Below, in pieces: positions 104 through 62,566 of a stretch of 64,000 nt of DNA. The notes beneath the pieces were generated by a model that was given only the letters and a program-made list of their open reading frames with translations, was not told the DNA's origin and searched no databases. Each line of letters begins with the position of its first letter. Positions within the stretch are counted from its first letter, which is position 1. Source of the DNA: a virus. The translations under genes and the position numbers were made by a program. The DNA lies in IMG/VR virus record IMGVR_UViG_3300009514_000016, positions 16,186 through 80,185 of that record. One strand, given 5' to 3'.

Positions 104-1384
104 AGGGACAATCAGGAACACTGATTATCATTATTTTTCATTTTTCTTTCTTTTGCAGCCCAGGGACCATAACAGGATTATTTAATCCTTCCACCTGAGA
201 AAAACAAGAATTTCCATCACTATTCTGTGACTTGAGAATCTCCTCCTGCAACCGCTTCTGCGTTCTTCTTAACAAATTAAGTGATCCCACATAATCTGCG
301 TCAGCTTTATGTCCGCATTGTTTGCAATGAAAACTCTCCTTACTCCTGTTCTTAATGGACTCCCAACCACAAAGCGGACATATCCTGGAAGTGTTTTTTG
401 GATCAACCTCTAAAAGATGAACACGGTTCTCTTCTGACTTGTTTCTGATCCTCATTACCACCTGAGAATATGCCCATGGGGCCATCTGTTTTCTTAACTT
501 CTTATAACTCTTCTTTGAAGTGTTCTTCTTCAAATTTGTCAAATCTTCAATTCCTAAAACCTGGATTTCATCCCAAGGGAGATTCTTAATAACCTTAGCA
601 ATATAGTCATCTCTCCTCTTAATGGCTCTCCTTTTAGCTATGGAACCTTGCTTCTTTCTAGCAACAGCTTGACATAGTTCCTTAATTTTTATTCCATATC
701 TCCTATTCTTATTGTCAACACAGAGTTTATTATAACCAAGGTCAATTGCTAAAGTGTCTCCCTTAGTCTTTAATGGAGTGTCAGGAACTTCAACAAATAA
801 ACTGATATATTTATTGGATAACTGACAACCTTGAAGCAGTTTAGCCCCTGGTTTCTTTAACCACCTGTTTAGTGCTCTATTTGATTTAATAGGAACTTCA
901 ATTGGAGAACCTTTTTTCATTCCAGAGATTCTAACACAATAATCAAAGTGTTCTTGTCTAAATTTTTCAACTTTGCAAGTGTTTATAGAAAGTCTGATTG
1001 CTCCTTCAACTTTTGGAACAGAAGCTTTAACTTTTAGTGCTTTTGCTGATTTCTTTGTGGAAATAACAGTTTCCAAAGAAAATTTTAATGCTTCAGTCTT
1101 TTGCCTATAACCAAGAGAGCCAGAATTTAATCTTTTCAATGTTTTAGCATCTAGCTTCCCTTTTTCTATCCAAAGAGAGGGAATATAAGAATTCACTGCA
1201 TGAAGAAGCTCTCTTCTATAAGCTTGAAGAGCTTTCTTTTTCTCTTGAGTTAGATGGGATATGGATATTTTAAAACTTCTTAACATAGTGTGTTTATTAT
1301 ACAATGGATTATTTTGCGGAAAGTGAAAACAAGGAACGTTCCTTATTGTGAGATTTTTGTCTTAGATTGTCCTTATTTGTCCCT
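104..1384 (-). mobile_element. Non-autonomous TnpB-only insertion element with imperfect inverted ends
   Basis: AGGGACAA at 104-111 (+) is inverted at 1377-1384 (TTGTCCCT). The upstream end has short GACAA repeats. No transposase gene between the ends. Confidence 0.5.
138..1286 (-). CDS. tnpB: TnpB RNA-guided endonuclease (IS200/IS605/IS607-type)
   Basis: RuvC-I LAIDLGYNKL, RuvC-II GIEDLTNL, VDPKNTSRICPLCG...CKQCG zinc ribbon, RuvC-III DADYVGSLNL. Likely start is the ATG at 1286, 9 nt after a GTATAAT box (ORF track starts at 1304). Confidence 0.93.
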   Translation of the reverse strand: MLRSFKISISHLTQEKKKALQAYRRELLHAVNSYIPSLWIEKGKLDAKTLKRLNSGSLGYRQKTEALKFSLETVISTKKSAKALKVKASVPKVEGAIRLSINTCKVEKFRQEHFDYCVRISGMKKGSPIEVPIKSNRALNRWLKKPGAKLLQGCQLSNKYISLFVEVPDTPLKTKGDTLAIDLGYNKLCVDNKNRRYGIKIKELCQAVARKKQGSIAKRRAIKRRDDYIAKVIKNLPWDEIQVLGIEDLTNLKKNTSKKSYKKLRKQMAPWAYSQVVMRIRNKSEENRVHLLEVDPKNTSRICPLCGWESIKNRSKESFHCKQCGHKADADYVGSLNLLRRTQKRLQEEILKSQNSDGNSCFSQVEGLNNPVMVPGLQKKEK

Positions 1385-1580
1385 ATTTTGGAAAACTGTA
1401 AGTCATGCTGTTATCTGGATTAGTTTTGTTTTCAAAAACCTTGTCAACAATATGAATGCGAGAAAAGGCTTCTTCAGAAAGAATCAAATCTCCATTATAA
1501 ATGATGGTGTGATCTTTAAGGAAACATATCCCATCGCCTGTTTTAAGATAGAATGGATATATCAGCGCTATTGTCTGCAT
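1383..1580 (-). CDS. Hypothetical protein, possibly truncated by the TnpB element
   Basis: 65-aa ORF with AGGA SD; its TAG stop coincides with the putative element end. Confidence 0.45.
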   Translation of the reverse strand: MQTIALIYPFYLKTGDGICFLKDHTIIYNGDLILSEEAFSRIHIVDKVFENKTNPDNSMTYSFPK

Positions 1581-1709
1581 TATATGTCCTAATTGAAGTC
1601 TATTAATTTAAGCGATTTTCTGTTCATTTTTCCTTCATTTTAGAAGATGATTTTTGAAAAACATAAAGAATATATGAGAATATAGACATATTGCGGAAAA
1701 TCCTCAAAA

Positions 1710-2654
1710 ATGAACAACTGGCCAAATAACTGGTATAGTCAATTCAATAAAATAGCTCAATCTCGTGGTGCTTTGCAAGACATAATCGATGTGCAGAATA
1801 TATTTATTGATTCATTTGCTGAAACCGGGAAAATTGATCAAAAACTGCAGCAATCTATCGTTGATCCTGTTGTTGAAAATTCTGTGCGCGAATTGAGCGC
1901 ATCAGTGTCTCAATGGATAGATGATGTTCTGTCTCAAACAAATCAGTGGACGCGCGGAGATCAGAGAGATTTGTCTGTATCAGACTTGAATGTCACTTTA
2001 GAGCATAGTTGGGCGAATGCTATGAGAGAATCAAATACTTTTTATATAAATTTTTCATCTCCAATAACTAATAAAAATAGAGATTCATTATTGCGGATTA
2101 GCGAGATGACTCCCCCAGGAATGGTGGAAGGATATTCCAGCAGAGAATCGATTAGGACATATGATTTTGTAGAATTCAATATCAGAATACTTATAAAAAG
2201 CATATTGACAAGCATGATGTCTGAATCAATTAACGTATCTGGCAAGGGCGTCTATAGCGCATACGAAAAGTTTCTTGAGAAATGGATCATTCCGAATGTG
2301 AGCACAGAATATTATCCGCCAAATCCAAATAAACCCGGAGAAAAGATGCGCCCACATGGTCAACAAACTCATTTGTGGCATTTGGTTCATAAGCAGTTTC
2401 TTCCATCAAAAATATGGGATCTGATAGAAAAATACGGATTCAACATGACAGTCAGAGGAGATCATTCTTCCCTGTCATATAAAAGCCAGAGAACTAAAGC
2501 GCCATACAGATACGATCCAAGAAAAGGCACAACTGATTTCATTAAATTTCCAAGCATGGCAAATAAATGGGCGGAAAATAAAATGATAACAGACAATGAT
2601 AAAGTGAAGCTCATTAGTTTTATTCAGGAGGCAATGGATATCAAAGATGAGTAA
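1710..2654 (+). CDS. Hypothetical protein with N-terminal NWY tag (putative internal head protein)
   Basis: Starts MNNWPNNWYSQFNKIAQ; weak similarity to 3380 and 62567 ORFs. Confidence 0.75.
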   Translation: MNNWPNNWYSQFNKIAQSRGALQDIIDVQNIFIDSFAETGKIDQKLQQSIVDPVVENSVRELSASVSQWIDDVLSQTNQWTRGDQRDLSVSDLNVTLEHSWANAMRESNTFYINFSSPITNKNRDSLLRISEMTPPGMVEGYSSRESIRTYDFVEFNIRILIKSILTSMMSESINVSGKGVYSAYEKFLEKWIIPNVSTEYYPPNPNKPGEKMRPHGQQTHLWHLVHKQFLPSKIWDLIEKYGFNMTVRGDHSSLSYKSQRTKAPYRYDPRKGTTDFIKFPSMANKWAENKMITDNDKVKLISFIQEAMDIKDE

Positions 2655-3378
2655 CTGGTACAACATATTTAATCACAAAATGGCTCAAAACACTTCTTCA
2701 TACCCATATGAGAAAAATCCATTTAGCCTATCCAAAAGAGAAGTGGAACAACTCATGCATGACGCCAACAGAGATGTCGCTGATAAAGTCGCTGTCAACT
2801 CTGTGGGATCTCTATCTGAAAGAGATCTGGGATCCATAATGCAAGGAGGCGAGGATACTGTCAATGATATGTTTGATGAATTTATAAAAATTAAAGCTTC
2901 ATGGAGCGGCGGAATCATCCAAATATATATAAAAACTCCAGATCCCGCAAAAGAAGATCATATCACCCTTTACCTTAATGATATGGGAGTCGATGACGAA
3001 ACAGAGTTAGCTAATTATCTCCATGGCGCTGTATATGGGATGATTGTTCAATTTGTGTCCGATATGCACATTCAATACTCAACCGATGATATTCAAGGGG
3101 CAATTGACGATTTCTATAGCGGTGTAAGGCCATCTGATCTATCTTCTAAGGAAACACCCGAATATGAAGCGGAAATGCCACAGGAGGCCCCACAAGAGCC
3201 TGCAAAGGCTAAAAAACCATGGTATCACGAATATCTCAAGCAAGAACTAGAACACCAAAGAATTCAAGACAAAACATTTGAAGAAAAACTCATAGAAGAG
3301 ACTAAAGGAGACAAATTAGAGCAACAATTGCGGGAGTGGGAAGCTAAGGGATATATTTCAAGAAGACCTAGACGATAA
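2647..3378 (+). CDS. Hypothetical acidic protein with N-terminal NWY tag
   Basis: Starts MSNWYNIFNHKMAQ; overlaps the upstream stop. Confidence 0.75.
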   Translation: MSNWYNIFNHKMAQNTSSYPYEKNPFSLSKREVEQLMHDANRDVADKVAVNSVGSLSERDLGSIMQGGEDTVNDMFDEFIKIKASWSGGIIQIYIKTPDPAKEDHITLYLNDMGVDDETELANYLHGAVYGMIVQFVSDMHIQYSTDDIQGAIDDFYSGVRPSDLSSKETPEYEAEMPQEAPQEPAKAKKPWYHEYLKQELEHQRIQDKTFEEKLIEETKGDKLEQQLREWEAKGYISRRPRR

Positions 3379-3379: not shown

Positions 3380-4357
3380 ATGAATAACTGGTATCTCAAA
3401 TTCATCAAACTGGCGCAAGAAGAAAAGTCTCCAACATGGCAAGATGAATTCGCTGATATTAAAGATCGTTTCAGCGTCGCTCACGATATGATGGCAGAAA
3501 AAGGCCACCAAACCTTTCAAGACCCCATGGTCACTGATCTTACAAATATTGATTATATATCAGAACAATTCTTAAATCAACACACTAGCGAAATTTTAGA
3601 CAAAATAGAAACACTAAAAAGAAGTTACCAAAACCAAACAAATATCAATGATGAACCACAAGAAATGCCAGATGCTTGGATTGGACCCTATCACGAAGAA
3701 GAAATAACATATCCAGAAGCCAGAGGAAGATTAATGTTTAATTTGCCGCTAATGAATTACAACATAAGCATCAATATGGATATGTATATTGACGAACACC
3801 CATCAACATTTGCTTGGAATCCTAATAATTCATATTTTTCACTTGCAGCAGATTTCACTTCAGAACCAGTTTTATCTAAGAAAGCATTCGAAGGAGAACG
3901 CGGAGGAAGCTCAATAGTTCATATCCCATACACCTTAGCTAATGAAAAATATATAAAGCCATACCTGAAAAATCTAATAAATGGATCAGTTCATAGCTAC
4001 ATCAATCGAAATAGCAACGCACTTCAAGATATGCTCCAATCAAAAGCACCTGATCAACATATCGGAAACCTAAATAAAAACAACCAAATGCTAATGAATA
4101 TAGCATGGAAATTCAATGAAGCAAATACTAATAATTGCACTCCAGAAATTCTAGATGGACAATTAGATGGATTGCAACTGGCCGCAGAAATATGCGAACA
4201 CCCATATATCAGAAAAATCTACAATGACCACATCAATCCTGACGATAGGCGAGAATCTATCTATGTTAGCAGCCTGTGGTCTCTCCCATATTCTGTTTTT
4301 GTGCATTTAGTTCACTGGATGGAAGAATTTATCAATAAGAATTCTGGGCCATCCTAA
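3380..4357 (+). CDS. Hypothetical protein with NWY tag; paralogue of 62567..63415
   Basis: Starts MNNWYLKFIKLAQ; shares AEKGH and SLP..V..H...M...IN blocks with 62567. Confidence 0.8.
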   Translation: MNNWYLKFIKLAQEEKSPTWQDEFADIKDRFSVAHDMMAEKGHQTFQDPMVTDLTNIDYISEQFLNQHTSEILDKIETLKRSYQNQTNINDEPQEMPDAWIGPYHEEEITYPEARGRLMFNLPLMNYNISINMDMYIDEHPSTFAWNPNNSYFSLAADFTSEPVLSKKAFEGERGGSSIVHIPYTLANEKYIKPYLKNLINGSVHSYINRNSNALQDMLQSKAPDQHIGNLNKNNQMLMNIAWKFNEANTNNCTPEILDGQLDGLQLAAEICEHPYIRKIYNDHINPDDRRESIYVSSLWSLPYSVFVHLVHWMEEFINKNSGPS

Positions 4358-4902
4358 ATCTCTAATTGTTCATACCTGTCAACATCTTCAATAAAAGACT
4401 CAATTAACTCAACCTCAATTAGATTTGTACTACACATGTCTTCTGCGACGCTTGCGTCCATTGATGCTAGTTTTTCTTCTTTGCTTTTTGATTTATGTTT
4501 TACACAAGTTCCATATTTATCGTGAGGCAAAGTAGTGTTATTTGGTAAGAAACACACATTTTTGCAAAACCAAAAATATTCGACAATTGGCCAAGGTCGG
4601 TATTCTTCTTTTTGTTCTGATTTAGAAAGTATATATGTGAATCTCACAAAACTAATAAAACCAATCAAGCATATTATTGCGCCGCTAATGGAAATTATAG
4701 AATAATTTCCCGATGTTAACATGCAAGATATGATACCTATAGTAAAAAAGGTTAATACTACATAAAAACCCTCGAATTCCCCCTGAGGTGTTGTTTTATC
4801 AACAGAGTTTTTGATTCTATAATATATTATTATAGGAATTGTCACCGGAAGTAACATTATTCTCACCCAAAAACATAGAAAATCCAATATTATTCTCATC
4901 AT
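4354..4902 (-). CDS. Membrane protein with C-terminal LEI tag
   Basis: Three hydrophobic segments; ends RYEQLEI. Confidence 0.75.
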   Translation of the reverse strand: MMRIILDFLCFWVRIMLLPVTIPIIIYYRIKNSVDKTTPQGEFEGFYVVLTFFTIGIISCMLTSGNYSIISISGAIICLIGFISFVRFTYILSKSEQKEEYRPWPIVEYFWFCKNVCFLPNNTTLPHDKYGTCVKHKSKSKEEKLASMDASVAEDMCSTNLIEVELIESFIEDVDRYEQLEI

Positions 4903-5378
4903 ATCTCTAAATTCCCATAAGTTGTTGGTTTGAATTCTTTGATTTCTATTTCTTTGCTTTTAATGTCATTGTTTATTTGCTCATCAATTGTTGCATCTTG
5001 ACAAAAATTGAAATTGTTTTTCTCAAGAATTTTAAAAACATCGTCATATTTAGCTCTAATAATTACATTTTTATCAGTCAAAATAGCCAAATATTTGAAA
5101 CCCAAAACATTTGAGGAATAAATTTTATTTATAGTTGCTTTATATTTACAGTTTATAGCGCCATCATCATTGCTAATATACCTATCAAAAATATTGCTTA
5201 TTTCGCTGGCTTCAATTTTAGCAAGCTTCATGTTTTCATCGTAAAAATAATATCTTAAAATGTCAATATGAATAACGTCGGATGGACCCAATTCATGAGC
5301 ATAAAACGCTTCTGAAATAATCTGGACAGTCTTATGTGGAAGACTCCTATACGCACAGCGATACACTTGATTTGTCAT
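4899..5378 (-). CDS. Hypothetical protein with C-terminal LEI tag
   Basis: GAGGA SD; ends TYGNLEI. Confidence 0.75.
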   Translation of the reverse strand: MTNQVYRCAYRSLPHKTVQIISEAFYAHELGPSDVIHIDILRYYFYDENMKLAKIEASEISNIFDRYISNDDGAINCKYKATINKIYSSNVLGFKYLAILTDKNVIIRAKYDDVFKILEKNNFNFCQDATIDEQINNDIKSKEIEIKEFKPTTYGNLEI

Positions 5379-5395: not shown

Positions 5396-5680
5396 CTAAT
5401 TTTCTTTTCTCATTGCATAAACTTCCTCACCAGTTTGCAATGCGTCGCACAATTCTCTAGCCATGCCAACAGCGTAATCTATGTCATGTGGAAAACTATC
5501 AATATCATCCAGGTGGTCTTTATTTACAAATTTACTCTTAAGGGCATTGTTAATATATGATATTAGATCTTTGGCGTTTTGTTTTGCTTGTTTCAGCCAA
5601 TCTTTCACTTCGCTGTCAAGAATTTTGTAGTTTCTTTTGTCTTCTTCAGTTTCTAATTTATAGAATAATTCTTCGCTCAT
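5396..5680 (-). CDS. Hypothetical helical protein
   Basis: GGAG SD and upstream GTATAAT. Confidence 0.7.
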   Translation of the reverse strand: MSEELFYKLETEEDKRNYKILDSEVKDWLKQAKQNAKDLISYINNALKSKFVNKDHLDDIDSFPHDIDYAVGMARELCDALQTGEEVYAMRKEN

Positions 5681-5709: not shown

Positions 5710-5716
5710 ATTATAC
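5710..5716 (-). promoter_or_regulatory. GTATAAT sigma70-like -10 element (representative of 11 copies)
   Basis: Same 7-mer upstream of genes at 1296-1302, 9198-9204, 42719-42725, 43382-43388, 45034-45040, 54502-54508, 57134-57140, 58291-58297, 60673-60679 (all -) and 46380-46386 (+). Confidence 0.7.
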
Positions 5717-5780: not shown

Positions 5781-6449
5781 CTATATTTCTAAAACTCCAT
5801 ACATGCCATTTGCAAGTTTTCTACTTATTATGGTCAAAAATCCTTTTTTATGATCTATAAAATTATCTTTATTATAATAAGGAATGCACAGGCGTCGCTC
5901 GCTATCGTCTAAGTCATTTTTTATGCTAAGTCTTTTACCAATGTCATAGCCAGACAGCGAATTCTGCAACTCAAGCCACATACGTTTACATTTAAAATAA
6001 AGACCTATATACTCTTTCATTAGTTTGGTCCCATTAAAATTAAATACATATATTAGATCCCCTCCCAAGATATTGTCATGTATATATGTTATTTTATTGT
6101 GTGGTTTGATCTCTTTTAGCGAATTTTTATTGTCCTCATGGCTTAGTGCTATATGGCATTTAGCTATTATTTTGCTTACATCGGTAGACGAATAAGTAAA
6201 GTTGCAATGTTGTTCTTTCATGCAGTATTCAGTAAAATAACTTTTTATCACATATGGAACAGCGTACGTCAGAATGTCCTTTTTTATCGCCTTATAGGGA
6301 ATTGCGTTTTCTAATTTTATTTGACCGCTCTGATCGAATTTGATGTCATCATATTGGTTTTCGTTGAAAAATTCTTGTATCATAGAATGAGTATTGCGTG
6401 GCAGTAATTCGTTAAATTTGCTAGTATATTGTTGCACAATGCCGCTCAT
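5781..6449 (-). CDS. Hypothetical protein with C-terminal LEI tag
   Basis: AGGAG SD; ends MYGVLEI. Confidence 0.75.
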   Translation of the reverse strand: MSGIVQQYTSKFNELLPRNTHSMIQEFFNENQYDDIKFDQSGQIKLENAIPYKAIKKDILTYAVPYVIKSYFTEYCMKEQHCNFTYSSTDVSKIIAKCHIALSHEDNKNSLKEIKPHNKITYIHDNILGGDLIYVFNFNGTKLMKEYIGLYFKCKRMWLELQNSLSGYDIGKRLSIKNDLDDSERRLCIPYYNKDNFIDHKKGFLTIISRKLANGMYGVLEI

Positions 6450-6469
6450 AGTATCTCCTATAAAAAAAT

Positions 6470-6505
6470 ATTAGTGAATCTCAAAATTCTCAGATTAGTG
6501 AATCT
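6470..6505. repeat. 12-bp direct repeat ATTAGTGAATCT (2 copies), possible operator
   Basis: Copies at 6470-6481 and 6494-6505 in the intergenic gap. Confidence 0.5.
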
Positions 6506-6532
6506 TGGAATTAACAATTAGATTATCTATAT

Positions 6533-9145: not shown

Positions 9146-9339
9146 AATTTGCGTCTTGGCGACTGATCATTAATTGCGTCAATTGCCTTGTGATTTCATT
9201 ATACTATTGATTTTTGGCATCCGTGAAAGAAAAATGATTTTCTCAAAGAAAAATATCGATCCGTCTACAAAAAAATATCTAGCCACTAGGCGTATCGATA
9301 TATGCGAATAAGACGTGTCGATATTTTTATTAAACAGTT

Positions 9340-9373
9340 AAAAAGAAAAGGGAGAGAACGAGTCTCTCCCTTT
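9340..9373 (-). terminator. Rho-independent terminator after the major capsid gene
   Basis: 11-bp stem AAAGGGAGAGA/TCTCTCCCTTT, 5-nt loop, U-rich tail on the minus strand. Confidence 0.85.
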
Positions 9374-9410
9374 CTAACTCCTTGATTTATAAGGACTTAC
9401 CTAGATCGGA

Positions 9411-10274: not shown

Positions 10275-10376
10275 TTTTGTTATTCCTTTTTCTGAGTTAT
10301 ACTTAGAAATTTCTTATTTGTTCTATATTAGAAACTTTTCTAATTAGACGCGATCTAATAAGAGTTATACTCTAAA

Positions 10377-16908: not shown

Positions 16909-16936
16909 ATTTGACTGTCTTCGCGATTAAATCCTT
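16909..16936 (-). promoter_or_regulatory. Putative phage late promoter AAGGA-N16-GTCAAAT
   Basis: Matches a bipartite motif also seen at 19336-19362, 37902-37928, 40479-40505, 45895-45920, 57662-57689 (-) and 58353-58378, 62471-62498 (+). Confidence 0.5.
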
Positions 16937-19302: not shown

Positions 19303-19362
19303 TACTAATCCTTATTTCTAAATGAGTTATTATTCATTTAGAACAAAATGAAAGAAAACCTT

Positions 19363-37863: not shown

Positions 37864-37927
37864 TTGTTTTCTCCAAGAATATAATAATCCTTAATCCTAC
37901 CATTTCGATAGGTGGATATCATATCCT

Positions 37928-38713
37928 TTATTTTCCAAGCGACTTAGCGGCGACTTTCTTTATAGCGTCTGCCGTCATATCTTGGCCGGTAGAAAATGTT
38001 TTCACAACAACATCATTTTTCATAATATCAAAAACATCTTTTCCTGATTCTGAGTGGGAAAAACATATTTTGTAAGTCCCAAGATGATATGTCTCATTAT
38101 TAGACTTCTTTTTCTTATTCTTTTTATAATTCTTGAAATCGGGGTGGTGACCATGTTCCTCATACCATTTGCGCCACATTTCTGGCTTATTGATCATCAT
38201 CCAATATTCTTGTTTTGCCGACTCAAATGGGGCTTGTTTCATCAATTTGGATGTTACAGTTTTATTGCTGGATTCTGCCATCCCTCCCAATCCTCCTCCT
38301 GGTTGTTGCGGCTGAGGAATTAATGGGATACTGTCGAGAATATCTGTTACTTCTTTATGGTATTTTTCGATGTTTTCTAAAATTCTATCAACTATCTGAT
38401 TAAGAGCCTTATGATAATTGTCATCCAAATACTCAAATAGATTCGTCTCATTATCCCATGGGTTAATATGGGACTGAATATAATCTAAAATCATATCTCG
38501 ATCAATCCCCAAGCCTTCTTCTTGATCAGAGTGTTTATTGGCTCTTTTATCGCGAATCAGATCAAGCACAATTCTTTTGCCCATAGTGTCAATTTTTGAC
38601 GGATCTTTAACCAGATCTTTGACTATTCTCTCGTATCCGAGAGCAATAGCATCATCAGTATGATCTATCGTTTTTTCTTTTGGTTCTTTTTGCGATATTC
38701 TATACCAATTCAT
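37928..38713 (-). CDS. NWY-tagged hypothetical protein downstream of terminase
   Basis: Probable start MNWYRISQ at 38713. Confidence 0.7.
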   Translation of the reverse strand: MNWYRISQKEPKEKTIDHTDDAIALGYERIVKDLVKDPSKIDTMGKRIVLDLIRDKRANKHSDQEEGLGIDRDMILDYIQSHINPWDNETNLFEYLDDNYHKALNQIVDRILENIEKYHKEVTDILDSIPLIPQPQQPGGGLGGMAESSNKTVTSKLMKQAPFESAKQEYWMMINKPEMWRKWYEEHGHHPDFKNYKKNKKKKSNNETYHLGTYKICFSHSESGKDVFDIMKNDVVVKTFSTGQDMTADAIKKVAAKSLGK

Positions 38714-40445: not shown

Positions 40446-40516
40446 GAAAATAACCGCAAATAGAATTAACTACTTACGGTTACAATTATTTATGATTGAA
40501 AACCTGCGTTTTATTC

Positions 40517-42688: not shown

Positions 42689-42742
42689 ATTTCAATTCTC
42701 CGTTTTGTTCGCTTTGCAATTATACAAGCTTTGTCGGTGTCT

Positions 42743-43376: not shown

Positions 43377-43396
43377 TCGTCATTATACAAGAGTTT

Positions 43397-44248: not shown

Positions 44249-44249
44249 G

Positions 44250-45028: not shown

Positions 45029-45045
45029 GCGCTATTATACAGCGA

Positions 45046-45867: not shown

Positions 45868-45918
45868 TTTCTCTTTGCAAAAGATATATTGACAATTACA
45901 ATATCTTGAGGAAGATTC

Positions 45919-46290
45919 CTATAGGAAATTTGCCGAAAAGAAAATTATCCCAGCGATAGACATGAGCGCAAGCCCTATCCATAATGCTCCAATGGACAGT
46001 TTATTCTCTGCTTCTGTCTCCGTTTGCGCTTCTGATTTTGTATTCAATTTGTCCAGAACCTCCAAAATCAGTTCATTATTAGCGTAGCATATATTAATAA
46101 TGTCTCCTGTTTCCTGATAGATGGTGTTGAATGATTTTTCTACTCCTTTAACAAGCTGCTCAAAATAAGCTGCTGCTTCCATGCTCCGAGCTGTTATTTC
46201 TTGATTCTGAGCAGCCTGAGCACATTCCTGGCACAATTCGCTCTCATTCAGCTCTCCTAGTTCATTGCAGTTATTACATTCTCCGAACAT
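45919..46290 (-). CDS. Zn-finger protein with C-terminal transmembrane anchor
   Basis: Start MFGECNNC with AAGGAG SD; CxxC...CxxC; hydrophobic C-terminus. Confidence 0.65.
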   Translation of the reverse strand: MFGECNNCNELGELNESELCQECAQAAQNQEITARSMEAAAYFEQLVKGVEKSFNTIYQETGDIINICYANNELILEVLDKLNTKSEAQTETEAENKLSIGALWIGLALMSIAGIIFFSANFL

Positions 46291-46409
46291 ATTCAACTCC
46301 TTATGAGATTCAACCGCTATTATATGAATAAAGTGTTGATGGCCAATGATTTTTAAATTTTCCTCTTTTCCGACACCGAGTATAATACCAAAGATTGAAA
46401 GGAATGACA

Positions 46410-52955: not shown

Positions 52956-52956
52956 A

Positions 52957-54493: not shown

Positions 54494-54530
54494 AGCGATA
54501 TATTATACCGCACAAAGATAAAATTGGCAA

Positions 54531-54929: not shown

Positions 54930-54966
54930 AGCGCCATATTCTAAAAAATATTACTTTCTCCTAGTT

Positions 54967-55473: not shown

Positions 55474-56014
55474 ACATCATCCTAAACTTACTAGATATTC
55501 TCCATAAATTCAATCCAAGTCTTTTGGGGGAAGGTTTAGCGGAATGTAGGTTTTTACAGTTAAATTGCCATACAGACCCTGGGATCAAATTTACTGATTT
55601 AATTCCAGTTTCTTTTTCTTTAGTCCAAGTAAACCCCTTATACCCCAATCTGTATTCAAATTCACATTCCCCAATAAGATTTATCCCCCAACTTTCATAG
55701 TCGGCATAGCTATCATCTCTGTGAGGATTGATGCCGATACCACTTTTCCCGCTCCAAGTTAGAAGCCCAATTTCAGGCTGCCAATCTGAAAATTCTTTTA
55801 TAACATCTTGAGACCAAGAAAGAATTTTATTTGCAGTTTCTGAATCTGGCGCAGAGAAAAATTTTCTCTCATTAAGAGACCATTCTCTGCCAAGCCATAC
55901 TCTTTTTCTCCCTTTGGCATATGAACTAACATCCTCATTCATGTGGGGATACATTTTTCTGCATGTATCTATCATTTCTTCAGGCACAGAAATAGGACCG
56001 TATATATTCAGCAT
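55457..56014 (-). CDS. 2OG-Fe(II) dioxygenase (AlkB-like)
   Basis: INPHRDD (HxD), LHSA (distal His), RLGLNLWR. Confidence 0.7.
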   Translation of the reverse strand: MLNIYGPISVPEEMIDTCRKMYPHMNEDVSSYAKGRKRVWLGREWSLNERKFFSAPDSETANKILSWSQDVIKEFSDWQPEIGLLTWSGKSGIGINPHRDDSYADYESWGINLIGECEFEYRLGYKGFTWTKEKETGIKSVNLIPGSVWQFNCKNLHSAKPSPKRLGLNLWRISSKFRMMYEMEN

Positions 56015-56710
56015 CTATATTTCCAATCCAGAATAAGTTTCGTCAACTTCTTCTTCTCTTTCGCATTTTTTCTTGGCCTTTTTCTTTGATTTTTTCTTTC
56101 CACCTTTAAAAAGATCAGGTCTGTTTTCTTTGCGATAGGGAGTAAGTTCTTTCAAAACATCAAAATACTTTGGATCAGTTAAGAATGTTATTTCCTCTAA
56201 TATCCCTAATGCTGCATCTTTCTTTTTTTGTTCCTCATATAGCGCGTAGACATTATCCGCTATAACAGATGAAATTACAGAGCATGGATTGCGATAAGAT
56301 AGATGGATTACACTTGTCTCTGGCGGGCAGAATTGCCATCTATCTTTTGCAGGATCAGTAAGAGCATTTTCTATGTCCTTCTCAATATTTTCTTCTCCGA
56401 CCCCCTTGTAGAGATCCCATCTTAACGTAAAAGCCAATCCGCATTTCGCCCAAAAAACATTTGATCCAACATGTAAAACACCGTTTGAGCTTTGATTGCA
56501 CACAGACATATTCATTGAGGAAAAACACCAAGGACATCCATCTCGAAATATCTTTGATACATTATGGATGTACTTGTAATTTTTACATTTGTCACATATC
56601 TTGTCTTTGACTAGGTATGCCGAAAAATCAAAATATTTTCCTGGATCTCCTTTACATAACTCGCAATCATATGGAACTCTCAACGGCTCGGGCATTAATG
56701 CGGTTTTCAT
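56015..56710 (-). CDS. Cys-rich Zn-binding protein with LEI tag
   Basis: CELC, CDKC, CPWC; ends TYSGLEI; GGAG SD. Confidence 0.7.
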   Translation of the reverse strand: MKTALMPEPLRVPYDCELCKGDPGKYFDFSAYLVKDKICDKCKNYKYIHNVSKIFRDGCPWCFSSMNMSVCNQSSNGVLHVGSNVFWAKCGLAFTLRWDLYKGVGEENIEKDIENALTDPAKDRWQFCPPETSVIHLSYRNPCSVISSVIADNVYALYEEQKKKDAALGILEEITFLTDPKYFDVLKELTPYRKENRPDLFKGGKKKSKKKAKKKCEREEEVDETYSGLEI

Positions 56711-56711
56711 C

Positions 56712-57128
56712 TCAATTCTCCAAATCACTCAAAATCTTGTTAACCAAATGCCAACACATAGTAACGCATTTGACTCTCATTGGGTATTCTCTTACTCCTG
56801 AGAAAACCATGAGTTTTTCATCTTCAATATCTCCATCATTAGTCAACATCCCATGGAATTTTTCAAATATATTTTTAATATCACTAACGCTCATGCCTTT
56901 AAGCTTCTCTGTCATGATGGACGCCGACGCCGTGGACAGGGCACATCCGCTGCCTGTGAAGTTAACTTGCGAGACTGTGTCGTTTTCTAATGATAACCAT
57001 AATTGAATTTTATCACCACATAAGCGATTATGTTCAGATCCACAGTGTGTATACTTTGATGGTTCACTGAAATTACGCGGATTATTATTGTGATCAATAA
57101 TCACTTCACGGTATAAATCGTCAATCAT
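56712..57128 (-). CDS. sufU: SufU/NifU-type Fe-S cluster scaffold
   Basis: LYREVIIDHNNNPRN, NRLCGDKI, FTGSGCALSTASASIM, FSGVREYPMRVKCVTMCWH. Confidence 0.92.
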   Translation of the reverse strand: MIDDLYREVIIDHNNNPRNFSEPSKYTHCGSEHNRLCGDKIQLWLSLENDTVSQVNFTGSGCALSTASASIMTEKLKGMSVSDIKNIFEKFHGMLTNDGDIEDEKLMVFSGVREYPMRVKCVTMCWHLVNKILSDLEN

Positions 57129-57184
57129 CAAATATTATACCCGAGATTCGGGTGCGGCAAATATTAAAATCTAATTACATGTAG

Positions 57185-57625
57185 TTATTCAGAAAGCGCA
57201 GCAGCCGGAGCGTTTTCCATAAGTTGAATTTCATTTAGAGCTTCATCAACTGTGGTTTTGAATGGAATTCCATAGCTTTCCTCATATCCTTCCATATAGG
57301 TTTTTGCTTTTTCAAGATCTCTTTTCAATGTTGTCATATCTATTGCTTTGTTGCGATATGCATAAATACTCTCAATAACATGGTTAATCCATCCAACAAT
57401 ATCTTGTTGATGAGAGCCGAATAGCCCACTCATCAATCCAGAGTCATCTGCCCATTGCCTTCCTCGCAATCCAATTAATTTGCCCAAAACCTCGTCAATC
57501 CTGCCGCCATCGCTCATCGCGCAGATGATATTATCAATCTCTTCAGAAATCTCAAACATTCCAATTTTATCTAGTTTGTCAGCTATTTTCGCAAGTTTTT
57601 CTGCAAATGTTTTTGTGGTTGCCAT
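57185..57625 (-). CDS. Putative head protein with LxKIAxKLD motif
   Basis: EKLAKIADKLDKIGMFEISEEIDNII; late-type promoter upstream. Confidence 0.65.
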   Translation of the reverse strand: MATTKTFAEKLAKIADKLDKIGMFEISEEIDNIICAMSDGGRIDEVLGKLIGLRGRQWADDSGLMSGLFGSHQQDIVGWINHVIESIYAYRNKAIDMTTLKRDLEKAKTYMEGYEESYGIPFKTTVDEALNEIQLMENAPAAALSE

Positions 57626-57711
57626 GTAATAATGATCCTAAAATTCGAACTATATGGTTCAATTTTAGATTATTGCTAATGATTTCCTTTCAATATTTTT
57701 GGCGCAAAATA

Positions 57712-58263
57712 TTATATTTCCAGCATTGAGTACGGATCATCTTTAGTCATAACCTTTAAAACTAGATCATGCTTTTCTTTATCTGATTTATATTTTTCGA
57801 TGATAGGTTCTTTATTTTTATATTCTTCTGATTTTGAATTAGTGTTGAAACTATTTAAATATTGAGTATACTTCGCAATATGTCCTTGCCATTCAGCGAC
57901 GTAACTATCATACTTTGATGCTTTTATTTTGATTCCTAAAATATAGTATTCTTTGCTCCCTCCAGATGAAAACCATGCAGGCCCATCTTCTCTGTGAATA
58001 TACCCTGACGCAGTTCTATAGGTAGTTGTGTCTAAAGTTGTCGTTACATGCGTTGTTTGCGGAGTGGACGGTATGACGATTAGGCCAGTGCCACACTTCA
58101 TAGATTTAAAGTTTTTCATTTCATAGATAATAAAGATAATAAACAAAAATACTGTTGCAAGATATGCGATGCTTACTGTAACAGCGTCAAAAAATATGAG
58201 GCCCAAAGGAAAAGTGAAAAACAATATGTTAGGAATTTTATCTCTTATCTTTTGCGCTATCAT
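57712..58263 (-). CDS. Membrane protein with HREDGPA repeat and LEI tag
   Basis: Start MIAQK with AGGAG SD; two TM segments; ends PYSMLEI. Confidence 0.7.
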   Translation of the reverse strand: MIAQKIRDKIPNILFFTFPLGLIFFDAVTVSIAYLATVFLFIIFIIYEMKNFKSMKCGTGLIVIPSTPQTTHVTTTLDTTTYRTASGYIHREDGPAWFSSGGSKEYYILGIKIKASKYDSYVAEWQGHIAKYTQYLNSFNTNSKSEEYKNKEPIIEKYKSDKEKHDLVLKVMTKDDPYSMLEI

Positions 58264-58386
58264 GTTAGATCTCCTAAAAGTATGCATTCCATTATACATG
58301 ATCATTGTGTTTGTTCCTAATTCCGCCCAAAAATAAAGCAAATCAAATAAACAGGAAATTTATAATCCAAAAAGAAATAATCCCTT

Positions 58387-58989
58387 ATGAACAATTGGTA
58401 TAATAAATTCCACAAAATATCTCAACAAAACTGGATGCAAAATATCCAAGAACAATCCAGCGTAGATGGGAATATAGGGCAAGAAGAAGAATTATCTGAA
58501 ATTCACTCAAAAAGCTACAAAATGAAAAAGAATGCTGCCGCTTTTGAGATAGCCGGAGCCGTGTTCCTTATAACAAATATCTTGATCGCTCTCAAGTATA
58601 GTGTGACTGACTCAATTGATCCAGAAACTCTAAATCGAATTGATGATCAGGCCGAAAAAGAAAAGATAGCAAGAAATAAAATTCAAATATTTGACAAATT
58701 ATCTAAACAATTATTCAATCTCGTGCATAGTCTAAATATGCTCATTGATGATGATAGTAATGTTAGAGAACAGATAATGGAATATGCCAAAATAGCTAAA
58801 AGCACTAGCATAGATTATGAGAATTTAGTTTTAGATGGAAAGTCCCTGCCAACTGAAACCCACCGAAAAGAAGATAGTTTGAAAAATGTTATGCCAAATA
58901 TGTTAGACAGACTAAAAAATAAACTGGAAGAATTCCATGCAAAAGGCGATGAAGTTGCAGGGAAAGCGTTGTCGCAAATTCCACAGTAA
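58387..58989 (+). CDS. NWY-tagged protein with one hydrophobic segment
   Basis: MNNWYNKFHKISQ; KKNAA then a hydrophobic helix; isolated + strand gene with late-type promoter. Confidence 0.72.
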   Translation: MNNWYNKFHKISQQNWMQNIQEQSSVDGNIGQEEELSEIHSKSYKMKKNAAAFEIAGAVFLITNILIALKYSVTDSIDPETLNRIDDQAEKEKIARNKIQIFDKLSKQLFNLVHSLNMLIDDDSNVREQIMEYAKIAKSTSIDYENLVLDGKSLPTETHRKEDSLKNVMPNMLDRLKNKLEEFHAKGDEVAGKALSQIPQ

Positions 58990-58990
58990 T

Positions 58991-59683
58991 TTATATCTCT
59001 AATCCTGAATATGGATTATCATATAATTGTTTGTCCAAGATATCTGCTTCTACTAAATTCTTTTTGCTCACAATCAATTTATCACTGTAATTATTATCAA
59101 CAATATCTTGCACCCTGATATTGTCGTCAACATATTTGTTCTTAGGAATATACCATTGACGCTTTTTCATGAATTCTTTGGCATAATGCATATCAAGCCA
59201 TCTGTTTGTAAAGAAATCAACCAAATCTGAATACTGAAAAACACAAAGTGTGCGCTCTATTTTATAGAGAAAACCATCTGTCGGAATTCCAAGGTGAGTC
59301 AACTTTGCCTTGTGATCGTATTCCATTTTATCTTTGTGCAATTGCCACAAAAATCCACCAATGTTATAAAAAATACTTTCATCACTTCCATTGTCCCTGT
59401 GACCTTCTGGAATTTTATCTAATTTTTCATTTATCTCTTTAACCGTTGGTATCAAATTGGAACTTAGGTCGCATTCGGTGTTGGATGATCCGTCTTCAAC
59501 AGTCAAAACTTTGCCTAATAGATTTTTATTATTATTGTGAGTGAAGCTAATTTCAATTCTAAATTGAGATGAACACGCTGTAGTTATCTTAGTTTGACAT
59601 GCTGGTGATAGATTTTTCATAAATTCATCAAGAGTGTATCTTTTCCAATTTGGGTCGTAGCCCCAATAATATAAATTGCCCAT
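58991..59683 (-). CDS. Hypothetical protein with LEI tag
   Basis: Ends NPYSGLEI. Confidence 0.72.
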   Translation of the reverse strand: MGNLYYWGYDPNWKRYTLDEFMKNLSPACQTKITTACSSQFRIEISFTHNNNKNLLGKVLTVEDGSSNTECDLSSNLIPTVKEINEKLDKIPEGHRDNGSDESIFYNIGGFLWQLHKDKMEYDHKAKLTHLGIPTDGFLYKIERTLCVFQYSDLVDFFTNRWLDMHYAKEFMKKRQWYIPKNKYVDDNIRVQDIVDNNYSDKLIVSKKNLVEADILDKQLYDNPYSGLEI

Positions 59684-60144
59684 TATATCTCCAATCCTGA
59701 GTAAGGATCTCTCTTTGTGACAATGAATTTTTTGTCTTCGATATAACTGCCATAAATAATAGTCTCAAAGTCTTGTTTGCTAAAACATTTTCCACCAATA
59801 TAGTAATGATTTTCTTCGCCCACCATAACCGCAGGGCCATCCAATCTGTGGATCTTGCCGCAAACAAAAAAGAGTCTACTATCTGCTGCCCAAAACGATA
59901 CATTAGATTCTAAAATATGAGGAAACTCAGAAATAACTGGAATCTCCTGAGCTACCAACAATGCTGGACCTCCAACCCTGTGCCGAACCCCATTGAGCCA
60001 CCACTCCTCAGAGCCATTGTCCCACACAACTGCTGGCCCACCTTCTCTGTGAATCCTTCCGTTATCATCATAATAAGTTTTATACTGAGGAGATTTCATG
60101 AACTGAGAAAAGAAATCATAGCCCAAGTTATCAAAATTAAACAA
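59683..60144 (-). CDS. HRxDGPA-repeat protein with LEI tag
   Basis: Three HRxxGPA repeats; ends DPYSGLEI. Confidence 0.75.
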   Translation of the reverse strand: MFNFDNLGYDFFSQFMKSPQYKTYYDDNGRIHREGGPAVVWDNGSEEWWLNGVRHRVGGPALLVAQEIPVISEFPHILESNVSFWAADSRLFFVCGKIHRLDGPAVMVGEENHYYIGGKCFSKQDFETIIYGSYIEDKKFIVTKRDPYSGLEI

Positions 60145-60146
60145 CT

Positions 60147-60623
60147 CTAAATCTCCAATAACTCATATGGGTTTCTAGGATGAGCAAGCTGAATCTCTCC
60201 AGCAATTTTTTGAACAATGCCGTGTTTGGCCTTATAGGATTCTGCGGATTTTTTATATCTTCCCATATCTACAGTGTCTATTATTTCATTGCGCGATCCA
60301 AAATAAGCACCGTCAACATAATAATAAGCAGATCGGACAATTGGCTTTCCTTGATCTTGACGGTCAACTCTCTGAATCGCAGGGCCATCGACATTGTGAT
60401 ACAACCCATTTTTGTAGTATTTGTAAAAATAGAAGAACTCATTCTTTATTTCCACATAAGCAGGGCCATTATCTCTGTGAAGTTTTCCATTTTTATGCCA
60501 AGTTCTTATTGATGTATTTTGACCTGAAAATTGCAATGAAGATGGCTCATCATTAAAGCTGTGCAATTTCCCATCGTCATTATAGGTTCTAATACCGCCA
60601 TTTTTAAACGTTTTCTTTTTCAT
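60147..60623 (-). CDS. HRxDGPA-repeat protein with LEI tag
   Basis: LHSFNDEPS, LHRDNGPA, YHNVDGPA; ends NPYELLEI. Confidence 0.75.
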   Translation of the reverse strand: MKKKTFKNGGIRTYNDDGKLHSFNDEPSSLQFSGQNTSIRTWHKNGKLHRDNGPAYVEIKNEFFYFYKYYKNGLYHNVDGPAIQRVDRQDQGKPIVRSAYYYVDGAYFGSRNEIIDTVDMGRYKKSAESYKAKHGIVQKIAGEIQLAHPRNPYELLEI

Positions 60624-60697
60624 ATCTCTAACATTTCAAATGCAAATAACCCCATGTTTGAAACATAGGGCCATTATACATGAGAATACTATTAGTC

Positions 60698-62239
60698 CTA
60701 TATCTCTTTGGGATTTATATCTTCGCTAAACATTAGCTGATCAAAATACGCCCCTAGATCATCAATAAATCTGGCATATTGAATGTCATTCATATTGCGG
60801 ATTTCATAACTAGACATTGCATTTGGTCTGTATAACGCTTGTTTAATTATTTCTTCAGGAAAGCCAATTTTTTGATAGAATCCCTCTAACAATCCGCGCT
60901 CAAATTTGTCTGGGTACTCTGTGTATGATATGGTTTTAGAGTCTTTATCCAAATAAGCGACATAAGTTTTAGATGAAGCAGGATCAAAAACAATAGGAGG
61001 CGTAATTAACGCGATATCAAATAAAGCAGCTAGTTCTGGCCTGCTCAATTCATTAATCGGTTTGGTTTTTTCATACATCTCTATAAATGTCTGGTCATTC
61101 ATATCTCTGACTGGCATGTCCCCATATCCATGCTGAGCATACAACTCCTGCAACATGGCCTGCTCTTGGGGACTCAACTCCCTATCAACTCCAGCGCATC
61201 CAGTGCTCAGAGTGCATGCTCCAATCATTATTAACAAAGCAGCAGCCCATTTCCTAACTGATTGGGCAGCATTCCCAAACATGCCTTTCAATTTATCAAA
61301 CCATCCTGTTTGTTTCGCTGTGTTCTCAACTGCAGAAACATCTTGAGGAGTGCTCTCGCCGTTTTCTGCAATCTTTTTCAGCCGCGAAATATATGAACTA
61401 GACAAAATAACTATTGATGGCTTAGACTTACTAACTAACAAATCCAATTTGTCAGCCTCCTCATGCAATCCTAGTTTATCCAATTTATTCGCAATTCTCA
61501 CAAGCTCGCTTAACACTGAAGCTCTGACTGGATATTTGCCGCCTCTTGGGATTTCCGCATGGTGCTCGTCTATTAGTCTCATTAGTTCCTCTCTGATATT
61601 TTCTTTATTAGATAACATTTCAGGAGTAACTGGCTTCCACACTTCACGCAACTTCCAGTTTTCTTCATCTGATCGGTCAATGTCAGGCATTAATGCCAAT
61701 TCTGATTTCTCTTGCTGAAATATCGGTTTTATTTTGAGTGCAGGCTCTTCTGGAAGCGGAGTAGCGCTTCCGCTTTCATCATAATTTTCTAGATACTCCA
61801 TCCATTTTTTATGATCTTCAATTTCTTCTGGAGTTGATTTGCGCTCTTTGATGTTGGGGTCATTAAATACAGTTACATACCCGCCATCGATGACTTTTTT
61901 AGTTTCTTTCGACCATTCATCGCGTTTATTATACTGAATAAGAGATATGCCTTGGTTAACTGAGTATAAGTAAGCAGGTCCATTGTCTCTGTGAATCATG
62001 TCGTCAACCCACCACACTAATTCTTTAATGCCTTCCCACAAATCTAAAGCCGCTGGTTTATCTCCGTCCCTGTGTTTTAATCCGTTTTTATAGTAAACTG
62101 TCGATCCGTTTTTCTCAATATAGGCCGGAAGATCGCCATCCCTATGGAGTTCCCCTTGTTCGTTTTTCCACTGTTTAGTTCCACGGCCAGTCACTGCGTC
62201 AGGATTCGCATTTACGGGATCGTTATAAGGATTTTCCAC
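60698..62239 (-). CDS. Multidomain protein: HRDGDxPA repeats, LxRIAxKLD motif, internal hydrophobic segment
   Basis: LHRDGDLPA/KHRDGDKPA; SELVRIANKLDKLGLHEEADKLD; LKKIAE; WAAALLIMIGACTLSTGC. Confidence 0.72.
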   Translation of the reverse strand: MENPYNDPVNANPDAVTGRGTKQWKNEQGELHRDGDLPAYIEKNGSTVYYKNGLKHRDGDKPAALDLWEGIKELVWWVDDMIHRDNGPAYLYSVNQGISLIQYNKRDEWSKETKKVIDGGYVTVFNDPNIKERKSTPEEIEDHKKWMEYLENYDESGSATPLPEEPALKIKPIFQQEKSELALMPDIDRSDEENWKLREVWKPVTPEMLSNKENIREELMRLIDEHHAEIPRGGKYPVRASVLSELVRIANKLDKLGLHEEADKLDLLVSKSKPSIVILSSSYISRLKKIAENGESTPQDVSAVENTAKQTGWFDKLKGMFGNAAQSVRKWAAALLIMIGACTLSTGCAGVDRELSPQEQAMLQELYAQHGYGDMPVRDMNDQTFIEMYEKTKPINELSRPELAALFDIALITPPIVFDPASSKTYVAYLDKDSKTISYTEYPDKFERGLLEGFYQKIGFPEEIIKQALYRPNAMSSYEIRNMNDIQYARFIDDLGAYFDQLMFSEDINPKEI

Positions 62240-62566
62240 GAGACCAGTTCTCCATAAGGTTTTTATTCTATTTGTTTCTTTTTCCTAAGAATTCCTACAT
62301 ATTTTCACAAGATCTCCCAGTTCACAATTTTTTTGAGACCTATTTTTTTCAACTATGTTTTTTGCAATTTTAGACAATTATTCCACAACTCTAAAAATGC
62401 TGAAAATAACCACTTTTCGGCCAATCCCTTTTTCTTCAATTTCCAACAATTATTGCAATCCATTCCAGAAAAGGAAAGAAACCAAATCAGCCGAAAATAA
62501 AGATAACCTAAAAGAACTAGGAAACGAACAAATAATCAAAACCATAAATAAATTAGAACTAATATA

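Follow-up and report, generated by a model that had tools for sequence, protein, structure and literature searches.

Two putative promoter classes and two peptide tags paired with them in a fragment of a phage G-like megaphage

Gene content of the contig and its relatives

The stretch of DNA analyzed here, hereafter the window, comprises 64,000 nucleotides (bases 16186-80185) of one 80,185-bp viral contig in IMG/VR (IMGVR_UViG_3300009514_000016). Its intergenic regions contain two kinds of putative promoter, a GTATAAT box (class I) and a two-block element with the architecture of SigH promoters (class II), and its proteins share two short peptide tags, a C-terminal tail ending in Leu-Glu-Ile (the LEI tail) and an N-terminal leader starting with Asn-Trp-Tyr-like residues after the initiator methionine (the NWY leader). 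The distribution of these elements supports a pairing in which each tag keeps to one promoter class. The contig is 17% complete according to CheckV and is thus a fragment of a phage of ~0.47 Mb; contig positions outside the window are given below as negative coordinates, counted in window numbering. Viral contigs contain 158 relatives of the 287-aa capsid protein, and several of these contigs are complete genomes of 460-548 kb. Among cultured phages Bacillus phage G is the nearest, its capsid protein being 55.8% identical. Phage G (Donellivirus gee, 497.5 kb) encodes its own sigma factors, infects a spore-forming Bacillus, carries many sporulation-related genes and has a large share of its non-structural proteins detected in virions; the multi-omics study describing it gives predicted promoters only, without promoter classes or tags (PMC12484599). 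The phage studied here falls in the same genome-size class and has a related capsid protein, whereas the MNWYK leader is absent from phage G.

The head/portal block spans 9.4-40.4 kb of the window and includes genes for the capsid protein, a decoration-like protein, the portal, a trypsin-like peptidase and a 1761-aa protein (10951-16236, minus strand) whose N-terminus is head-maturation-protease-like. Flanking this block are accessory genes for GroEL, GroES, HSP20, two methylases, a NifU-like protein, a TnpB-like protein and a CCA-type nucleotidyltransferase, along with many ORFans. The HSP20 domain (51650-52066, E=1.5e-13) is encoded by a gene that comes after two LEI genes.

Two putative promoter classes

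All seven GTATAAT boxes listed in the original prediction, a first reading of the window made without database searches, are present on the gene strand (at 5710, 45034, 46380, 54502, 57134, 58291 and 60673). Further boxes occur in the window at 1296, 9198, 42719 and 43382, and five more are intergenic in the remaining contig. Across the oriented intergenic DNA of the contig the heptamer is found in 11 spacers versus 0.7 expected (z=12), and the 16 correctly oriented intergenic boxes of the contig contain TATAAT, the -10 hexamer of the housekeeping sigma-70/SigA. In a relative with a 476-kb genome (G001) the box, usually in the form TGTATAAT, is the top intergenic word, with 44 copies versus 3.9 expected. 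Of the 53 G001 boxes just one is preceded by TTGAC[AT] within the -35 zone, and a full two-hexamer promoter scan of the contig gives no enrichment over shuffled sequences. Nor is the TG of extended -10 promoters seen one base ahead of the hexamer, the conserved G directly abutting TATAAT to give (T)GTATAAT. The intergenic spacers of G001 are also strongly enriched in the words GCTTGACAT and AGTAGTACT (z about 11-13), which may be further promoter classes of the clade.

The class II pattern, AGG[A/T]-N16/17-nnWAA[T/C], is likewise found on the gene strand at all eight predicted sites and at a ninth (62270-62296). When AGGW and WAAY are sought at varying separations k in the window, matches peak at k=18 and 19 (7 and 6, versus about 1.1 expected each), and 13 of the occurrences in this peak are oriented with the genes versus 3 anti-oriented. 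The motif was chosen after looking at the window DNA, and on the window alone class II is suggestive. It is the related phages that confirm it by sequence: in 534 spacers around their capsid genes the peak lies at k=17-18, with 34 and 36 matches where the background is about 12-20 and anti-oriented matches number about 10. The aligned sites read AAAGGwTTT, 12-14 nt, GAAwwAwA. No such spacing peak is seen in G001 or in the 11 closest capsid loci, and the stricter pattern AAGG-N16-20-GAAW-N5-12-ATG occurs at chance level in the window and gives mostly coding matches in the phage G locus.

Class II closely resembles the published Firmicutes SigH promoter, which consists of a -35 AGGA, a spacer of 17-18 nt and a -10 GAAT (PMC12456013); that work cites the B. 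subtilis and C. difficile SigH regulons. The -35 block is AGGA in 9 of 11 window and contig sites and AGGT in the other 2, with an A-rich upstream flank, and the spacing is equivalent, in that N18/19 before WAAY corresponds to N17/18 before the preceding base. In the -10 block GAAAT is present at 37902, 58353 and 62471, the other window sites having C/T-AAAT or GTAA[TC], and in the relatives GAA[AT] is the rule. The -35 block and the spacing match SigH-type promoters and the -10 block may do so, and the closest cultured member of the clade infects Bacillus. Class II differs from these promoters in being phage-borne and placed before head genes and leader-tagged genes, in having a -10 block that in the window is mostly xAAAT, and in lying, in the relatives, 3-8 nt from the ATG.

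Two peptide tags

The C-terminal pattern [YFW]-x-x-[LIVM]-E-[IL]-COOH is found in 21 contig proteins, versus 0.02 expected from composition, and the tail is carried by about 22% of the proteins of this fragment. Glu is invariant at position -2 (21/21), and Ile prevails at -1 (20/21), Leu at -3 (18/21) and Tyr at -6 (17/21). The window contains 14 strict LEI genes plus 35592, which ends in LLEI and lacks the aromatic residue; this agrees with the predicted number of 15 LEI-type genes and with the claim that the only one within the head operon is devoid of that residue. Another degenerate tail, PKEI, is found in 60698. The Leu, Glu, Ile and stop codons of the tails vary freely, and therefore selection acts on the peptide; by the same token LEI as a DNA-level signal was rejected. 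All-against-all BLASTP joins few LEI bodies, most of which are unrelated to each other.

The LEI proteins have no homologue in the six relatives that were compared, and the 444-aa LEI protein 46395-47729 matches only itself among 5.8 billion proteins. A DNA pattern for D-P-Y-S-G-L-E-I-stop had 0 matches in viral contigs, a search of low sensitivity given that the pattern occurs once in the contig itself, and only 2 out-of-frame chance matches in metagenome contigs. As the tail is absent from every relative examined, it is best read as a young, lineage-specific code. The HRxDGPA domain, which had been thought to occur with either tag, turns out otherwise: by a hidden Markov model the repeat is carried by five LEI-type proteins, by one protein without a tag and by none of the NWY proteins. 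This repeat family is very widespread, with 17,440 matches for an HRxDGPA protein, and among the best 150 of these none but the query itself ends in LEI.

The NWY leader is present in nine window genes, which start M-(N)-N-W-[YIL]...[AS]-Q. In the relatives 40 further genes start M-N-W-[YF]-[KR]-x-[AS]-Q, often in tandem arrays at most 10 kb from the capsid gene. Once the leader is stripped, 48 of these proteins from the window and the relatives fall into 39 BLAST clusters. Thus, as in the T4-type capsid targeting sequence (CTS), the 9 window and 40 relative genes share a short N-terminal peptide on mostly unrelated bodies. The CCA-type enzyme of the window illustrates this, in that it aligns with a relative's nucleotidyltransferase from the first residue after the leader. 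Among the tagged bodies in the relatives are a 2H-phosphoesterase/Acb1-like fold (directed against the cyclic-oligonucleotide-based anti-phage signaling system, CBASS), multi-helix-turn-helix proteins and a 1235-aa protein (L016:15252-15776, L025:13070-14545, L120:15706-19413), the last of which ends in a poly(A)-polymerase/CCA-type head domain homologous to the window CCA enzyme.

In the relatives 22 NWY genes have their own spacer. A class II site at leaderless distance, its GAA 9-18 nt from the ATG, precedes 16 of them, GTATAAT precedes one, and 5 lack both; translational coupling accounts for the 18 remaining genes of the 40. Such a class II site is found for 16/40 NWY genes versus 6% of controls, which were genes whose spacers measure 40 nt or more (odds ratio 10, p=4e-9). 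Because class II sits a few bases before the ATG in these genes, their mRNAs are probably leaderless. The relatives also contain a second leader family, M-K-I-[YWI]-[KR]-[IT]-[AS]-..., behind a SigH-type promoter (L006:14053, L006:14488, G006:79895, G007:79312). It looks like a variant of the NWY leader, and class II sites precede 9/25 genes with such MKIYK-like leaders versus 45/858 controls.

Association of the tags with the promoter classes

For each gene the upstream DNA was traced to the first promoter site on its strand, and the gene was assigned to the unit headed by that site. Strict LEI genes make up 21/40 of the genes in GTATAAT-headed units and 0/34 of those in class II units (p=1.2e-7). 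When units are counted instead, 13/15 class I units and 0/10 class II units contain LEI genes (p=2e-5). The only tails behind class II are the degenerate LLEI of 35592 and PKEI of 60698. Within the window 12 LEI genes lie in the seven units named in the original prediction, as claimed there, and a 13th (54531-54929) has TAGAAT 8 nt before its ATG. The companion claim, that head-module and NWY genes follow class II, is borne out for the head/portal block; among the nine NWY genes it strictly holds for four (58387, 62567, 63412 and 37928), with a fifth, 63721, coupled behind 63412. No NWY gene (0/9) lies behind an intergenic GTATAAT. It is also true that no protein carries both full tags, although chance would yield no more than about 2 double-tagged proteins from 8-9 NWY and 21 LEI proteins, and this says little. 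The nearest approach to a double-tagged protein is a LEI protein outside the window (-1407..-700) that starts M-N-W-V-N-V-E-V, a partial leader look-alike without K-x-A-Q. Together these observations support two predicted promoter classes and two portable peptide tags, with each tag keeping to one class, while the reading of this pairing as early/late protein sorting is plausible but unproven.

Organization of the units

Most class I units are on the minus strand. The box at 1296..1302 lies 9 nt before the ATG of the TnpB-like gene 138-1304, and that at 5710..5716 heads 5396-5680 and the LEI genes 4899-5378 and 4354-4902. The box at 9198..9204 comes after the capsid-gene terminator and heads 7982-9145, 6533-7978 and 5781-6449 (LEI). 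Two units are without LEI genes: 42719..42725 heads the GroEL gene 41063-42688 and 40517-41059, and 43382..43388 lies 5 nt before the ATG of 43038-43376, which is followed by the GroES gene 42743-43069. The box at 45034..45040 is 5 nt before the ATG of 44588-45028 (LEI), in a unit that includes 43913-44248 (ending in IEI). The one at 54502..54508, with TTGCCA 17 nt upstream, heads the DNA methylase gene 53681-54493 followed by 52957-53691 (LEL) and 52155-53000 (LEI). The box at 57134..57140 lies 5 nt before an ATG of the NifU-like gene 56712-57131, and its unit includes 56015-56728 (LEI); read-through from this box or the TAGAAT at 54938-54943 would serve the LEI gene 54531-54929, also on the minus strand. 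The box at 58291..58297 falls inside the longest open reading frame (ORF) call of 57712-58341 (LEI), the real start of which is probably an ATG near 58263 with a Shine-Dalgarno sequence. Finally, 60673..60679 (site 60673..60699) has AGGA at the -35 position and heads 60147-60623, 59683-60144 and 58991-59683, all with LEI; three of these last four LEI genes encode HRxDGPA repeats. On the plus strand 46380..46386 heads the gene for the 444-aa LEI protein (46395-47729) plus four further plus-strand genes.

At five boxes (45034, 43382, 57134, and also 54502 and 1296) a mere 5-9 nt separate GTATAAT from the start codon, and a Shine-Dalgarno sequence is absent. Because the ATG comes just 5 nt after the box at 45034, 43382 and 57134, some class I transcripts may be leaderless or nearly so. 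The heptamer is not always a promoter, given that at 58398-58404 (plus strand) it is made by the leader codons TGG TAT AAT (W-Y-N) inside gene 58387. A different element is seen in the spacer 6450-6532 before the LEI gene 5781-6449, which lacks GTATAAT and has two copies of the direct repeat GATTCACTAAT 17 nt apart; this repeat may be an operator or another promoter type. The region upstream of the capsid gene (10275-10376) contains two copies of AGTATAACTC, with GTATAAC boxes 96 and 28 nt before the ATG, and the gene is followed by a strong 12-bp terminator at 9346-9374. The closest relatives have, instead of the GTATAAC boxes, a conserved TATAGG...CCTATA hairpin before the capsid gene.

Among the class II sites of the minus strand, 37902..37928 (AGGA-N17-GAAAT) heads the 16-gene head/portal block from 37863 down to 19363. 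Further along this module, 19336..19362 (AAGGT, with its -10 part in a hairpin) heads 18850-19302 and 16963-18846, and 16909..16936 heads 16270-16848, the protease-domain protein 10951-16236 (1761 aa) and 10377-10904. The site 40479..40505 heads 38718-40445 and the NWY gene 37928-38713, while 45895..45920 heads 45046-45867 and 57662..57689 heads 57185-57625. The newly found site 62270..62296 heads 60698-62239, which encodes HRxDGPA repeats and the weak tail PKEI. On the plus strand 58353..58378 (AGGA-N17-GAAAT) ends 8 nt before the ATG of the NWY gene 58387-58989, the mRNA of which is probably leaderless, and 62471..62498 (AGGA-N17-GAAAAT) lies 69 nt before the NWY gene 62567-63415, which is followed by the coupled NWY genes 63412-63714 and 63721-63999.

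The remaining NWY genes are the plus-strand tandem 1710-2654, 2647-3378 and 3380-4357, upstream of which is a one-mismatch class II sequence (AGAA-N18-AAAT, with AAAT ending 9 nt before the ATG), and 49856-51094 (minus strand), for the CCA-adding/poly(A)-polymerase-type nucleotidyltransferase. The latter shows no recognizable class I or class II site upstream and is coupled (TAATG) to the unlisted ORF 51094-51588 (minus strand), whose 164-aa product has a Lys-rich N-terminus and an internal leader-like Y-N-W-N-K-K-F-I-E-S-Q. Two hairpins, one with a T run, lie at about 51575-51650 upstream of this ORF.

Sigma factors and proposed functions

Each of five complete relatives encodes one SigH-like ORF (E 1e-17 to 1e-22, 62-78 bits, covering nearly the whole model). 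FliA-like sigma factors occur in 4/5 of these relatives and an RpoD/RpoS-like one in G001. Candidates for the predicted phage-encoded sigma of class II are thus present in the relatives; the contig itself has no sigma gene. We consider the probable reader of class II to be a SigH-like protein of this kind, encoded by the phage, divergent and with a score under the family cut-off. Phage sigma cascades are well known from SPO1 (gp28, gp33/34) and T4 (gp55), where host-type promoters are used first and phage sigma factors later redirect the host core polymerase. The arrangement proposed here is similar in having host-type promoters first and a phage sigma for a later class. It differs in that class I lacks a -35 element and precedes a relative's portal gene, and in the coupling of promoter class to peptide tags.

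As the explanation that we favor, and consider rather probable, we propose that the phage uses two promoter types, each tied to one peptide tag, with a SigH-like sigma and a capsid-cargo logic. Class I would be a -10-only box, (T)GTATAAT, resembling the -10 element of the housekeeping sigma and driving accessory genes, namely small ORFans, GroEL/GroES, methylases, the NifU-like protein, TnpB, a tRNA array and all 21 LEI-tailed proteins. Class II, a SigH-type promoter (-35 AGGA, 17-18 nt, -10 GAAT-like) probably read by the phage SigH-like sigma, would head the head/portal block and the genes for proteins with the M-N-W-Y-[KR]-x-A-Q leader. In the relatives and at 58387 its distance from the ATG is so short that transcription would begin on the start codon itself. 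The leader-tagged proteins might then be made together with the head and loaded as cargo in the manner of the T4 CTS, while the LEI-tailed proteins could be cytoplasmic accessory proteins sharing one docking or disposal partner. The motifs, the tags and their pairing are established at the level of sequence, as is, by comparison with the relatives, the conservation of both promoter classes and the leader throughout the clade. The assignment of sigma factors to the classes, the timing, capsid loading, leader cleavage and any role of the LEI tail are inferred.

Several results weigh against this proposal. No conserved -35 column is present upstream of the 16 contig boxes. In G001 GTATAAT occurs 22 nt before the portal gene, and class I is hence not confined to non-structural genes in the clade. 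The window capsid gene (9411-10274) has the two GTATAAC boxes upstream and no class II site, and in the relatives only 6/72 distinct capsid-gene upstream regions contain a class II-like site. In the window no more than the four of nine NWY genes noted above are in strict class II units. Motif discovery on intergenic DNA, which had been suggested as a check, does not single out class II in the window: an unbiased dyad search finds AGGA/AAAT at N18-19 in 6 spacers, within the maxima of shuffled sequences, and the motif is missed by a Gibbs sampler that assumes one site per sequence. None of the SigH-like ORFs reaches the curated cut-off (294.8), and the contig without a sigma gene represents 17% of the genome. 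The LEI tail, found in none of the relatives examined, offers no replication elsewhere of its link to class I. Lastly, tags and promoters are both clustered by genome region, and the gene-level tests therefore overstate independence.

This clustering raises the alternative of neighborhood confounding, under which the LEI genes would be a local-duplication swarm in GTATAAT islands and the leader genes would have arisen near the head module, with no functional coupling. LEI genes do cluster in islands (-6447 to 6449, 43913-47729 and 52155-60623), paralogy is detectable for some of them (-1757/-1407 and the five HRxDGPA proteins), all of them are ORFans that the relatives lack, and the NWY genes of the relatives form tandem arrays within 10 kb of the capsid gene. 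Yet most LEI bodies have no detectable similarity while their six-residue tail is nearly invariant with free codons, and non-LEI genes are interleaved in the LEI units (19/40). Furthermore, the NWY gene 58387 stands alone on the opposite strand amid a LEI island and has a class II site of its own, and the promoter-to-ATG geometry recurs across many relatives on unrelated bodies. In light of this we regard confounding as unlikely, if the most serious of the competing accounts.

The case of 58387 also bears on the idea that such genes are promoter-plus-leader cassettes dropped into early regions. The promoter-leader arrangement of 58387 recurs with its geometry in many relatives, but no DNA is shared outside the leader codons: the window NWY genes are without DNA similarity upstream of the ATG and therefore are not recently transposed cassettes, and a recently moved promoter-leader cassette was rejected. 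Given that NWY genes of the relatives show the same promoter-ATG geometry, 58387 appears to be one instance of a conserved promoter-leader unit.

A second alternative is that class II is read by the host SigH, such that head and leader genes would respond to the transition or stationary state of the host or to the onset of sporulation. The class II motif equals the host-type SigH consensus (PMC12456013), the sporulating host and sporulation-related genes of phage G (PMC12484599) would suit such a dependence, and the contig is without a sigma gene. Nevertheless, every complete relative examined has its own SigH-like ORF, conservation of the motif in the relatives extends into flanks (AAAGGwTTT, GAAwwAwA) that the host consensus lacks, and it is hard to see why a lytic phage would entrust capsid production to a host stress sigma. 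We accordingly hold this to be improbable. Least credible of all is selection of the NWY leader for translation, the first codons of a leaderless mRNA standing in for the missing ribosome-binding site: although leaderless mRNAs are predicted for 16/22 NWY genes of the relatives with their own spacer and for 58387, and the codons of the leader are rich in A and U, its conservation is just as strong on 18 genes of the relatives and 4-5 window genes that are coupled in arrays and not leaderless, its synonymous codons vary (AAT/AAC, TAT/TAC, GCT/GCG/GCC/TCT), and MKIYK-like leaders keep the residue pattern and not the bases.

Returning to the favored proposal, that leader-tagged proteins are made with the head and loaded into it, its model is the CTS of T4, an N-terminal peptide of ~10 residues on the internal proteins and Alt, which are unrelated, poorly conserved proteins made with the head; fused to foreign proteins it loads them into capsids, and it ends at the prohead-protease consensus (PMC9026906). 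The NWY leader is similar as a short N-terminal peptide on otherwise unrelated proteins. It differs in its pattern (aromatic-K/R-x-A-Q), in ending in Gln where T4 has Glu, in being known from sequence alone, and in its SigH-type promoter and often leaderless mRNA as opposed to the -10-only late promoter of T4. Candidates for a prohead protease are the head-maturation-protease-like domain and the trypsin-like peptidase of the head block. NWY leaders end in [AS]-Q, and four head-block proteins (16270, 22675, 26786 and 31759) have x-A-Q within residues 9-22; N-terminal x-A-Q is enriched 12 versus 4.2 (p=0.001), for a pattern chosen after looking. Capsid loading is thus suggested by the T4 analogy, by the kind of tagged bodies and by x-A-Q in the four head-block proteins. 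In the giant phage SPN3US many head and ejection proteins carry N-terminal propeptides, removed by the prohead protease gp245, that end at one short cleavage motif (PMC10052503, PMC5694885). Those propeptides are long and varied and have another motif, whereas the NWY leader is fixed, with 8-13 residues.

Short C-terminal recognition tails are likewise familiar from ssrA-type degrons and the I/V-x-I/V motif of small heat-shock proteins. The LEI tail resembles them in being short, at the extreme C-terminus and independent of the protein body. It is unlike ssrA-type tails, which have non-polar, LAA-like ends recognized by ClpX/ClpA, in that its last residues are not all non-polar, Glu being invariant at -2, and in the aromatic residue at -6. 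With L/I/V-E-I/L it conforms to [ILV]-x-[ILV], the pattern of ligands that bind the groove of small heat-shock proteins, and the phage encodes HSP20; this is a match of sequence pattern, and a relative has HSP20 yet no LEI tails. A PDZ-type LEI reader in the peptidase 34284-35591 was considered and is unsupported, the C-terminal half of that protein being SET-like.

A more elaborate and distinctly doubtful extension of these ideas is a protein-fate code, with a SigH-like sigma, mostly leaderless mRNAs and a capsid ticket on one side and a Y-x-x-L-E-I label on about a fifth of the accessory proteome on the other. The leader products would constitute an injectable kit including anti-defense and RNA-repair enzymes. 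A single phage or host reader of LEI, perhaps a late-made protease or phage chaperones, would clear, hold or relocate the labeled proteins at the switch.

Phage G-like megaphages rank with the largest phages known; the literature searched yielded no promoter classes mapped by experiment in them. Both capsid-targeting leaders at the N-terminus and temporal classes of promoter that depend on phage sigma factors are known kinds of system. What appears new is a predicted SigH-type promoter class in this clade that is coupled to a conserved leader and leaderless starts, along with a private C-terminal tail strictly confined, as far as the sites can be assigned, to the other promoter class. The two motifs are concrete and testable, one of them having SigH architecture matched by a SigH-like sigma gene in every complete relative examined. 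Class II is tied to a clade-wide leader on unrelated enzymes, including the Acb1-like anti-CBASS fold and the CCA-type nucleotidyltransferase. If the leader does load capsid cargo, it would provide a simple sequence rule by which the proteins injected by this group of uncultured giant phages could be predicted, and engineering would gain a portable tag. As to when the LEI tail acts, the best clue at hand is that it is confined to a single promoter class.

Additional observations

The weak-tail gene 35592-36335 (LLEI, minus strand) lies inside the head block directly upstream of the trypsin-like peptidase gene 34284-35591 (minus strand), which thus directly follows the sole LEI-like gene of that block. 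The peptidase has a Trypsin_2 domain (residues 79-216) fused to the SET-like C-terminal half, and a single homologue, 66% identical, was found for it among 5.8 billion proteins. Downstream of its capsid gene phage G (L134 22814-29797) encodes small Zn-ribbon proteins with a common Y-W-K-E-N-D-R-Y-L-A-K-like C-terminal end; these look like paralogues and not carriers of a portable tag. At 107-129 of the window a 9-bp hairpin plus T run lies just downstream of the TnpB/Cas12f-like gene 138-1304 (minus strand) and overlaps the called start of the LEI gene -176..111.

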